64,000 nucleotides of DNA from Escherichia phage vB_EcoM_Ozark, in the sequence record NC_054927.1; one strand, written 5' to 3'. Both the position numbers and the translations under genes were made by a program. The notes below the pieces were generated by a model. The model had not been told where the DNA came from, searched no databases, and was given only the letters and a program-made list of their open reading frames with translations. Shown one piece after another: positions 7,564-8,760 of this stretch; position 1 is the first letter of the stretch; each line of letters starts with the position of its first letter.

Positions 7564-7582
7564 TTTATTCTCCTCAGTAGTT

Positions 7583-7621
7583 GATAGGGTAATAGTATCA
7601 CTACCCTATCTAAAAGTAAAC
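7583..7621 (-). promoter_or_regulatory. promoter-hairpin cassette (PeSL-like): early promoter with -10 inside a stem-loop
   Basis: Plus strand gatagggTAATAGTATCACTAccctatc (7-bp inverted repeat) followed by gtaaac; minus strand reads GTTTAC-N18-TACTAT. Confidence 0.5.
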
Positions 7622-7855
7622 TTATTTTTTACGAAAAATTGATTTATTTTCTGCTGCCCATTTTTCAATAACTGCAGCAGGACCAGTAACAACAATTTTA
7701 TCACCGTAATCTTCTGCAGCGAGTTGACCGAAATTATCTAATGCATCACGAAGAACTCCATGAGGCATTTCGCCCATTTTATCCTTCTTGCCAATGTAAA
7801 TAAACTCAACTTTTACATCAACAGCTTCAGCAATAAATTCTTGATATGTTTTCAT
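7622..7855 (-). CDS. internal protein (IPI-like, capsid-targeted)
   Basis: Start set at second ATG with GGAG RBS: MKTYQEFIAEAVD..., 77 aa; position matches ipI (between tRNAs and 57B). Confidence 0.65.
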   Translation of the reverse strand: MKTYQEFIAEAVDVKVEFIYIGKKDKMGEMPHGVLRDALDNFGQLAAEDYGDKIVVTGPAAVIEKWAAENKSIFRKK

Positions 7856-7880
7856 TTTATTCTCCAATTTCACATTTGTT

Positions 7881-7919
7881 TTGATAGGGTAATAGTATCA
7901 CTACTAAAACCCCGTGTAA
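7881..7919 (-). promoter_or_regulatory. promoter-hairpin cassette (PeSL-like), copy 2
   Basis: gatagggtaatagtatcactac followed by gtaaacaactttgtgaaatt; same core as copies 1 and 3. Confidence 0.5.
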
Positions 7920-7940
7920 ACAACTTTGTGAAATTGTTTA

Positions 7941-8231
7941 TTACAAAAGATTTTTAGCAATAATCTTGAGATGTGCTGCAGAAATGTGTTTAGCTTTAAA
8001 CAACGCAGTTTCTTCGGCAGGAGAGATAACGATTGTAGCACCATCCTTTTTAGCAGACCACCCATCACCTAGGTAAACAGTACCTTTGATTTCTTCGCCA
8101 TCAACCAGACTAATCATTGGTTTACCTTCTCGTCCTTTATTTGCTTTAATAACTTCAGAAGTAAGAGTAGCTTCGGTAATGGTAGAAACCGGGGTAGTTG
8201 TAGTAGAAGTAAATTCTTTAAATGTTTTCAT
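7941..8231 (-). CDS. internal protein-like (capsid-targeted)
   Basis: 96 aa; MKTFKEFTSTTTTPVSTITE with I-T-E cleavage motif; RBS AGGAA. Confidence 0.6.
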   Translation of the reverse strand: MKTFKEFTSTTTTPVSTITEATLTSEVIKANKGREGKPMISLVDGEEIKGTVYLGDGWSAKKDGATIVISPAEETALFKAKHISAAHLKIIAKNLL

Positions 8232-8252
8232 TTTTATTTTCCTAATTAATTT

Positions 8253-8292
8253 TGATGAGGTAATAGTATCACTACCTCATCAGTATGTAAAC
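8253..8292 (-). promoter_or_regulatory. promoter-hairpin cassette (PeSL-like), copy 3
   Basis: tgatgaggTAATAGTATCACTAcctcatca (10-bp inverted repeat around the same core) followed by gtaaacaactttgtgaaatt. Confidence 0.5.
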
Positions 8293-8304
8293 AACTTTGT
8301 GAAA

Positions 8305-8760
8305 TTATTTTAAATCATCTGCCCAATCGAGTTTAAGAGGCTCTTTGTATTCACGATCTAATACGACCGGAATTTGTACATCACCGCTAAATGATAAGGG
8401 CCCAACATTATAAGACAATGTTATATGCGGTGTGTAATCATCAAAATCATGTGTAGCACCTAGTGCCCGCGCATACATGTGTCGACAGCGAAGATATTCA
8501 GAATCTAGCACAAGTACAAGAGTCGATCCATCTTGTGTTTTCCATACTTCTAAATGTCCAGAAGAAGCTACTTCAAAACTTCCACTCGATGGAACATATG
8601 GAACATTTACTCTCGAATAACATATAGTCGAATGAATTTTTTCTCTAGGAACTGGATTAGGAACACGTAAAGAGCGCTGGAGTTCTTCCAGCGCGTCAAG
8701 TGTTAATTCTGAAAACTTAGCTGCTACATAAAGACCCGTTGAAAAGTCTTTAAATTCCAT
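8305..8760 (-). CDS. 57B: 2H phosphoesterase, gene 57B (Acb1-like anti-CBASS nuclease)
   Basis: 151 aa with two H-x-T/S motifs ([15 protein letters not shown]) typical of 2H phosphoesterases; sits immediately upstream of 57A as in T4. Confidence 0.7.

Follow-up and report, generated by a model that had tools for sequence, protein, structure and literature searches.

Promoter-bearing hairpin cassettes as probable single-gene boundaries at the ipI internal-protein locus of Escherichia phage vB_EcoM_Ozark

Why should one short promoter sequence, enclosed by a hairpin, be repeated in front of three consecutive phage genes, and what could the hairpin do there? The question is raised by the ipI internal-protein (IP) locus of Escherichia phage vB_EcoM_Ozark, which lies in the 64,000-nucleotide stretch of record NC_054927.1 analysed here (the window). 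In agreement with a sequence-only reading of this DNA, the core TAATAGTATCACTA is present in three exact copies (copy 1, 7590-7603; copy 2, 7890-7903; copy 3, 8261-8274), with 0 matches in 100 shuffles, and each copy stands immediately upstream of one minus-strand gene (ipI for copy 3, a second internal-protein gene for copy 2, trna.4 for copy 1). We contend, at a probability of roughly 0.8, that every copy bounds a single gene as a cassette of the promoter-early-stem-loop (PeSL)-like type of T-even IP loci, combining a promoter, a stem formed in read-through RNA and recombination from core to core. The three cassettes are as follows.

8232-8304, minus strand: cassette 3, from the 57B/acb1 stop to the ipI ATG; -35 GTTTAC at 8287-8292, GTGA plus TACTAT at 8263-8272, arms at 8253-8262 and 8273-8282, then AGGAAAATAAAAATG
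7856-7940, minus strand: cassette 2, from the ipI stop to the second internal-protein gene; -35 at 7916-7921, GTGA plus TACTAT at 7892-7901, interrupted hairpin at 7876-7923, Shine-Dalgarno (SD) sequence GGAGAATAAAA at 7855-7865
7564-7621, minus strand: cassette 1, from the second IP stop to the trna.4 ATG; -35 at 7616-7621, GTGA plus TACTAT at 7592-7601, arms at 7583-7591 and 7602-7610, SD GGAGAATAAAA at 7563-7573

Read on the gene strand, every copy is GTTTAC-N14-GTGA-TACTAT-TA. The GTAAAC that had been proposed at 18 nt from the TACTAT is found at 7616-7621, 7916-7921 and 8287-8292, the distance being 18 nt with the -35 taken as GTTTAC and 17 nt with TTTACA. TTTACA-17-TACTAT with a TGn motif is common to all three copies, with AT-rich sequence, TAAAATAATTTCACAAAG, upstream. 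Most T4 early promoters have good -35, TGn and -10 elements plus UP elements (PMC2988021), and the -35, TGn, -10 and A/T-rich upstream region of the copies fit this architecture, as had been suggested. The copies also match the consensus TTTACW-N17-TAYWAT of the PST/T4 PeSL promoters (PMC4122927), and the record of Yersinia phage fPS-65 carries annotations of predicted early promoters at the three orthologous intergenic sites. The assignment of the three copies as putative T4-type early promoters is supported. A search for GTTTAC-N15-TGnTAnnnT found six sites in the window where 0.03 would be expected; all lie on the minus strand and comprise the three copies and the sites 415-444, 3965-3994 and 55535-55564. 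At the 3' end of each of the three cassettes follow the SD and start codon of the downstream gene, intergenic and after the upstream stop; in cassette 1 the space is so short that the -35 (7616-7621) directly adjoins the second IP gene's stop codon.

Two of the three copies contain a perfect inverted repeat, formed in copy 3 by TGATGAGGTA (8253-8262) and TACCTCATCA (8273-8282), i.e., 10 bp with a 10-nt loop, and in copy 1 by GATAGGGTA (7583-7591) and TACCCTATC (7602-7610), i.e., 9 bp with a 10-nt loop. The loop of both is exactly GTGATACTAT, which is TGn plus the -10 hexamer (an extended -10). It had been claimed that the arms differ between these two copies yet stay complementary; the perfect repeats are indeed where they were placed, but the stems, GAT-GA-GGTA / TACC-TC-ATC and GAT-AG-GGTA / TACC-CT-ATC, differ at just two adjacent pairs. 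The covariation within the window is a single small event, one two-pair swap, and it is weak since the stems are not independent sequences. The further claim that the remaining copy has lost its pairing did not hold. The middle copy is without a perfect repeat but folds as a three-part interrupted hairpin (7876-7923) of -16.2 kcal/mol (z -3.2; none of 200 shuffles as good, sense RNA), and the corresponding sense RNA folds are -17.4 kcal/mol (z -4.8) for copy 3 and -16.4 kcal/mol (z -3.1) for copy 1. The upstream-arm type of copy 2 is also present in AR1, Manna and 303Ecol101PP, and in other phages it gives folds as good or better (ACG-C40 ip6, -18.1 with z -4.1; T4 trna.4, -14.8; AR1, -14.9). 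In all three copies the sense RNA folds 3-4 kcal/mol better than the antisense RNA, the core contributing G.U pairs to a stem of up to 13 bp with an AUAC loop. Rfam covariance models gave no match, at E values up to 1, across 7300-8400.

Two of the remaining pattern matches are related early promoters near other genes of the window:

415-444, minus strand: second IP locus, upstream of ORF 60-377 (MKTFKEFIAE...); an 8-bp stem AACUGUGA/UCAUAGUU around the -10, -10.3 kcal/mol, z -1.8
3965-3994, minus strand: upstream of an e.7-like ORF; without hairpin (-4.1 kcal/mol, z +0.2), serving as the negative comparison

The window begins within this second IP locus, and the MKTFKEFIAE of ORF 60-377 is a capsid-targeting sequence. 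The sixth match, GTTTAC...TGTGTTATAGT at 55535-55564 on the minus strand, is remote from the IP loci, among the late genes, and its -10 coincides in part with a 6-bp repeat, TGTTAT/ATAACA.

The proposal that compensatory changes reveal selection on the structure, for which the window offers only the one two-pair swap, is sustained by changes across genera and by permutation tests. Upstream of trna.4, the Mosigvirus phages APCEc01 and LF82-4 carry GATAGGACT and AGTCCTATC around the loop ATGTTATAGT, compared with GATAGGGTA and TACCCTATC around GTGATACTAT here; the geometry is the same (9 bp and a 10-nt loop), and three pairs have changed on both sides in a compensatory manner. The Mosigvirus stem upstream of ipI is AGGATGAT/ATCATCCT. 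At the second IP locus, comparison of the T4 stem AAUUGUGA/UCACAAUU with that of site 415 reveals a C-G to U-A compensatory change.

For a broader survey, viral contigs (IMG/VR) were scanned. The bare 14-mer core gave unrelated chance matches, and the longer pattern GTTTAC-N14-GTGATACTAT was used instead, yielding 112 loci in 64 non-redundant contexts. Over these contexts the mean duplex energy between spacer and downstream segment was -7.04 kcal/mol, compared with -4.57 +/- 0.28 for randomly re-paired halves (0 of 5000 permutations as low), and at least eight consecutive in-register pairs outward from the core were found in 8 of the 64 contexts, against 0.46 expected and a maximum of 4. In an ungapped alignment of 66 non-redundant sequences, 50.3% of the cells of the 9-bp helix were paired (41.9 +/- 1.7% when shuffled; 0/500), and the covariation score was 0.310 against 0.199 +/- 0.020 (0/500), falling to 0.16-0.19 when the partner was slid by 1-3 columns. 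The survey also contains unrelated arm sequences, such as GGTAGAAGACT/GGTCTTCTACC, GGTAGGAGC/GCTCCTACC, GGTGTAGGATG/CATCTTACACC and CCGGAAGT/ACTTCCGG, from Pectobacterium phage PM2, Klebsiella phage Marfa, Enterobacter phage CIP9 and others, and its cassettes precede small genes of many kinds, IP genes among them. A metagenome set scanned with the original core repeated the enrichment, but its cassettes are partly common to the viral set. Where an otherwise perfect stem has a lone non-Watson-Crick position, this is in most cases a G.T of the sense strand (5 vs 2, plus further cases). In four survey loci on IMG/VR contigs (L134, L138, L146 and L183) the spacer pairs with the SD region and not with the start region, e.g., TCCTCATCAG ... 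CTGATGAGGA; in these, a read-through RNA would hide the ribosome site and a promoter-started RNA would not, which is the arrangement of the T4 genes e and soc.

The sequence-only reading had further expected that related phages would differ by gene swaps at these elements, and a comparison of 16 loci between 57B and trna.4 bears this out through chimeric cassettes and cassette-sized indels. The cassettes of the window belong to the ipI locus by comparison with the T4 record, and cassette 3 is 100% identical to the T4 ipI cassette over 90 nt upstream and the first 60 nt downstream of the core. Between 57B and trna.4 the phages have either one IP gene or two, and which ones varies (ipI, ip5, ip6, ip7), with a cassette at every junction:

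T4 and PhiZZ30: ipI only
AR1: an ip5-like gene only
T2: ip5 and ip7
ACG-C40, fPS-65, KarlGJung and SHFML-11: ip5 and ip6
The phage of the window, ECML-134 and 303Ecol101PP: ipI and an ip6-like gene
PM107: ipI, interrupted, and an ip6-like gene

The second internal-protein gene is missing in T4, AR1 and PhiZZ30, and T4-like genomes are missing about 304 nt, equivalent to a single unit from core to core (300 nt in the spacing seen here). Across the 16 loci the arm types, three upstream and two downstream, occur in mixed combinations. When the flanks were compared in 30-nt bins, identity was seen to switch partner across the core. In AR1 the trna.4 cassette is identical (100%) to copy 2 over the 30 nt that precede the core on its 5' side, and identical (100%) to copy 1 over the 90 nt that follow it. 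The ip7 cassette of T2 resembles copy 2 ahead of the core (0.90), matches copy 3 behind it (1.00) and has a poor fold (-8.1, z -0.7), and the IP cassette of PM107 follows copy 2 over the 90 nt leading into the core and is different beyond the 3' arm. Such chimeric cassettes, read as recombinants, place crossovers inside the common core. Copies 2 and 1 have 24 identical bases in common, GTAGTGATACTATTACCCTATCAA, and between copies 3 and 2 the shared sequence comprises the -35 region, the core and, beyond these, the start codon together with the capsid-targeting codons, where one further repeat carries the IP-cassette homology on into the coding region:

7829-7858, minus strand: repeat of the start codon and capsid-targeting codons, paired with 8205-8234 at 87% identity

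Ordinary homologous exchange in identical stretches explains this pattern; no special enzyme is needed. If mini-circles are formed by exchange between neighbours, their predicted size is 300 nt for copies 2 and 1 and 371 nt for copies 3 and 2. What the compared sequences demonstrate is a common architecture, a conserved and covarying stem, and crossovers at the core.

From this arrangement we infer initiation at the three sites and a role of the stem at the RNA level, and the following sequence of events can be proposed. Each cassette would present a strong T4-type early promoter to the host sigma-70 RNA polymerase, with A/T-rich sequence upstream, GTTTAC, a 17-nt spacer, TGn and TACTAT; a short leader without structure would then lead to the Shine-Dalgarno sequence and the ATG. 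In so compact a promoter, free variation appears to be confined to the spacer and the bases transcribed first, and these are complementary to each other, which would put the extended -10 into the loop of a 9-13 bp hairpin. Under the customary sigma-70 rule, transcription would begin about 7 nt after the TACTAT. The predicted start then falls inside the 3' arm, so the promoter's own transcript could not form the stem, which would arise only in read-through RNA from upstream (or in single-stranded or extruded DNA). The read-through RNA may come from the promoter of the previous cassette or from a late promoter before 57A, the nearest candidate being:

9358-9365, minus strand: late-promoter motif TATAAATA, upstream of 57A, the nearest that could feed read-through RNA

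The same motif occurs 24 times in the window against 9 expected, mostly on the plus strand at 11.7-45 kb, as expected for the late structural block.

In read-through RNA the stem would serve as a partial attenuator and as a structure protecting 3' ends, insulating each gene module. In RB49, a PeSL stem-loop cut downstream lacZ expression like a strong terminator (PMC2839356). Protection of 3' ends could follow cleavage by RegB or an RNase at the downstream GGAGAATAAAA Shine-Dalgarno; both SDs of this sequence, at 7563-7573 (trna.4) and 7855-7865 (second IP gene), match exactly the strong RegB site GG*AGRAYARAA (PMC3014915), and a RegB cut there would turn the stem into the 3' end of the upstream message. 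The ipI leader, AGGAAAATAAAAA, is without GGAG. The identical core of 14-24 nt, to which the IP genes add a shared leader and capsid-targeting codons, would allow homologous recombination, within one genome or between co-infecting phages, to delete, insert or replace whole genes while always regenerating the promoter.

Action of the stem in read-through RNA is the most likely option, and it is also the weakest link of this explanation, against which several observations weigh. No U-run follows any of the three stems (they are followed by AAAATTAATT, AAAACAAATG and ACTACTGAGG), and none was called in a terminator scan. We infer initiation, and any attenuation, from sequence; a literature search gave no usable map of T4 transcript starts or ends. 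There is no minus-strand TATAAATA between 6951 and 9358 and hence no late promoter inside the locus, so that late synthesis of the head proteins probably requires read-through of the stems, and this sets a limit to their strength as terminators. A strong stem accompanies just about one quarter of the promoters with this core, and flanking stems are not enriched at promoters with the cores GTGATATAAT or GTGTTATAAT. These two observations indicate that the stem belongs to one cassette family of enterobacterial T-even-like phages and not to T4-type early promoters generally; the idea that all such promoters are set in hairpins was rejected given the lack of enrichment at the latter two cores. The wobble bias towards the sense strand rests on fewer than 10 events, and over all contexts the sense and antisense duplex energies are equal (32 vs 31) and uninformative. 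Equal strand energies and few wobble events leave room for a role at the DNA level.

According to such a DNA-level explanation, the inverted repeat would act as a cruciform, or as a fold in single strands arising during replication or recombination, that is cut (e.g., by T4 endonuclease VII) or causes stalling (e.g., with template switching), thereby starting exchange, or it would tune promoter opening by offering the -10 in a loop. The exact coincidence of the loop with the extended -10 in independent lineages speaks for it, as do crossovers that map to the loop or core here and to the loop in RB49 (PMC2839356), the predicted folding of both DNA strands and duplex energies without overall strand bias. 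Set against this, a 10-nt loop with AT-rich arms of 9-10 bp makes weak DNA hairpins (-6.8 to -8.3 kcal/mol) and poor cruciform candidates, the wobble positions favour the sense strand, and the core is the longest identity between cassettes, so that ordinary homologous recombination already accounts for the crossovers. Nor need the position of the -10 exactly in the loop mean functional coupling, because short intergenic spaces leave only the spacer and the start region for a stem; compaction, seen where the -35 of cassette 1 abuts the upstream stop, explains the geometry equally. We consider a DNA-level role unlikely. A more specific form, drawn by analogy with integron attC sites, is that the fold presents the invariant core in its loop to a T4 structure-specific enzyme or to fork stalling and is thereby a structure-specific recombination signal; this we likewise hold to be unlikely, and if it were true, cassette exchange would be actively promoted and would keep anti-defence genes shuffling at two fixed loci.

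The complementarity could also be without any function of its own, left by shared ancestry together with templated (quasi-palindrome) mutation or with gene conversion that corrects imperfect palindromes. Within Tequatrovirus the arm types are indeed few, closely related and two pairs apart, poorly paired chimeras persist in nature (T2 ip7, L174 variants), and a strong stem is absent from the majority of promoters with this core. Yet unrelated arms of equal geometry recur in several genera, length changes are matched on both arms (Marfa vs PM2), three compensatory pairs occur at one orthologous site, and both the permutation and the slid-register controls are exceeded. Templated correction could keep a palindrome but not explain its constant centring on the -10; we hold this explanation to be quite improbable. 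Highly improbable, finally, is that the stems serve the genes upstream as ordinary rho-independent terminators, or that they are operators bound by a dimeric repressor of early transcription. They do lie 10-25 nt past the upstream stop codon, the RB49 stem-loop did act as a strong terminator in the lacZ assay (PMC2839356), and an inverted repeat over the -10 is in a classic operator position. None of the three is a GC-rich stem directly followed by a U-run, the feature by which an intrinsic terminator is recognized; and the arms differ within the genome and between phages while complementarity is kept, which favours structure over a site for a sequence-specific protein. Terminator and operator were both rejected on these grounds, and the one-gene boundary cassette with its stem in read-through RNA is retained as the preferred explanation.

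The region 6900-9000 matches 636 phage records, the closest being Escherichia phage ECML-134 (Tequatrovirus) with 99.0% identity over the whole region; the phage of the window is itself a Tequatrovirus. The minus-strand order is 57A, 57B/acb1, ipI, second internal virion protein, trna.4, trna.3 and trna.2, and the genes around the cassettes are:

8760-9002, minus strand: 57A
8305-8760, minus strand: 57B/acb1, anti-CBASS phosphodiesterase (PF23474, E 2.6e-60), the conserved upstream anchor of the locus
7941-8231, minus strand: ipI, internal protein I, GmrSD nuclease inhibitor (PF11634, E 7.5e-54; phrog_4363), with the N-terminal capsid-targeting sequence MKTFKEF
7622-7855, minus strand: second internal virion protein, Ip6-like (phrog_8111, E 3.6e-51; annotated in ACG-C40 as 'similar to T6 Ip6'), with the capsid-targeting sequence MKTYQEFIAE
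7378-7563, minus strand: trna.4, small predicted membrane protein (phrog_1692; T4 annotation), the conserved downstream anchor of the variable locus

The ipI frame of PM107 (locus L246, 2053-2343) stops at 32 codons, its annotation consisting of two small ORFs, and for 57B/acb1 the fPS-65 record (locus L126, 2501-2674) shows a remnant of 174 nt; both have the look of counter-defence genes that were inactivated, or of frameshifts from sequencing. Next door, a minus-strand cluster of ten tRNAs (Arg, His, Asn, Tyr, Met, Thr, Ser, Pro, Gly, Leu) at 5030-5977 is followed by a homing-endonuclease ORF (5984-6616), and as the tRNA set and the endonuclease position are unlike those of T4, T2 and AR1, the tRNA region appears to be mosaic as well. 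Two near-identical GC-rich terminator-like hairpins with a T-run, AGCCCCGACCGAAAGGTTGGGGCT at 4132-4155 and AGCCCCAGCCAAAAGGTTGGGGCT at 4690-4713 on the minus strand, bracket ORF 4163-4636; their 5' arms differ by a GA/AG swap, with pairing to the same 3' arm kept via G.U.

The genes between the cassettes encode injected anti-restriction proteins (IPI blocks GmrSD) and adjoin the anti-CBASS gene acb1. As the cassettes flank counter-defence genes, they can be regarded as joints where T-even phages re-assort their counter-defence repertoire. An exchange unit that runs from core to core and always rebuilds the promoter would help in annotating such loci, in predicting sites of new internal-protein genes and in designing engineered insertions.

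The assignment to PeSL-like elements agrees with the literature on T-even IP loci, where such elements were credited by Arbiol et al. (2010) to Repoila et al. (1994) and described as having a T4 early promoter as their basis, with weaker stem-loops that are AT-rich, and as analogues and not homologues of the RB49 PeSLs (PMC2839356). Comeau et al. (2014) added PST/T4 to the phages with PeSLs and made the IP-locus point again (PMC4122927). PeSLs have promoter and terminator activity, with crossovers inside the loop (PMC2839356, PMC4122927), and the three copies would be PeSL-like elements with putative promoter and terminator or attenuator activity; a promoter with about 17-nt spacing and an AT-rich region, a stable stem-loop, an SD with ATG and a hyperplastic region are all found. 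Compared with the T-even elements there is no difference in kind, as far as the detail of 1994 is conveyed by Arbiol et al. (2010) and Comeau et al. (2014): the locus (ipI, 57B-trna.4) and the phage group are the same, and those elements are also T4-type early promoters with AT-rich stem-loops that flank variable IP genes and were proposed as shuffling points. A Nat Commun 2025 paper on the injected proteins is without discussion of intergenic elements.

The PeSLs of RB49 and phi1 have the same layout (AT-rich region, -35/-10, stem-loop, SD and ATG, in hyperplastic regions), and their stem-loop lies most often between the -35 and -10 or overlaps the -10, as here; their crossovers were mapped in the loop, exchange proceeds gene by gene, and mini-circles have been demonstrated for these two phages only (PMC2839356). 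They differ in their near-consensus TTGACA/TATAAT and strongly terminating stems of G-run and C-run, whereas the copies here have GTTTAC/TACTAT and AT-rich arms. By homology the three copies thus fall outside PeSLs sensu stricto, consistent with the term 'analogues' (PMC2839356). The PST/T4 PeSLs, whose promoter consensus fits the copies and which were linked to T4/PST differences including IP genes, are drawn in the figure legend with stem-loops just upstream of the promoter and an AGNA-loop-TCNT stem (PMC4122927), whereas the arms described here flank the -10 itself. In the leader hairpins of T4 e, soc, 49 and I-TevI the promoter is likewise inside the hairpin, long read-through RNAs fold and internally started RNAs lack the 5' arm (PMC3014915). 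Those hairpins sequester the SD or AUG, whereas here the SD and AUG are 3' of the stems and unpaired in the folds, the SD lying free 12-25 nt past the stem, which sets the copies apart from hairpins of the e/soc type.

Integron attC sites also bound gene-sized cassettes with recombination sites whose structure is conserved over sequence, but no integrase or site-specific recombinase is associated with the cassettes here, short homology explains their exchange and, unlike attC cassettes, they carry promoters. Lambdoid 'morons', gene-sized units too, bring along a promoter and a terminator. The element is genuine, occurs far more often than expected by chance and was in the main interpreted correctly by the sequence-only reading, and it is the rediscovery of an element already described. 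What is added to that description is a quantitative cross-genus case for selection on the stem, the recognition of the supposedly unpaired copy as a hairpin variant, crossover points at the nucleotide level, and the limitation of the stem to one cassette family.

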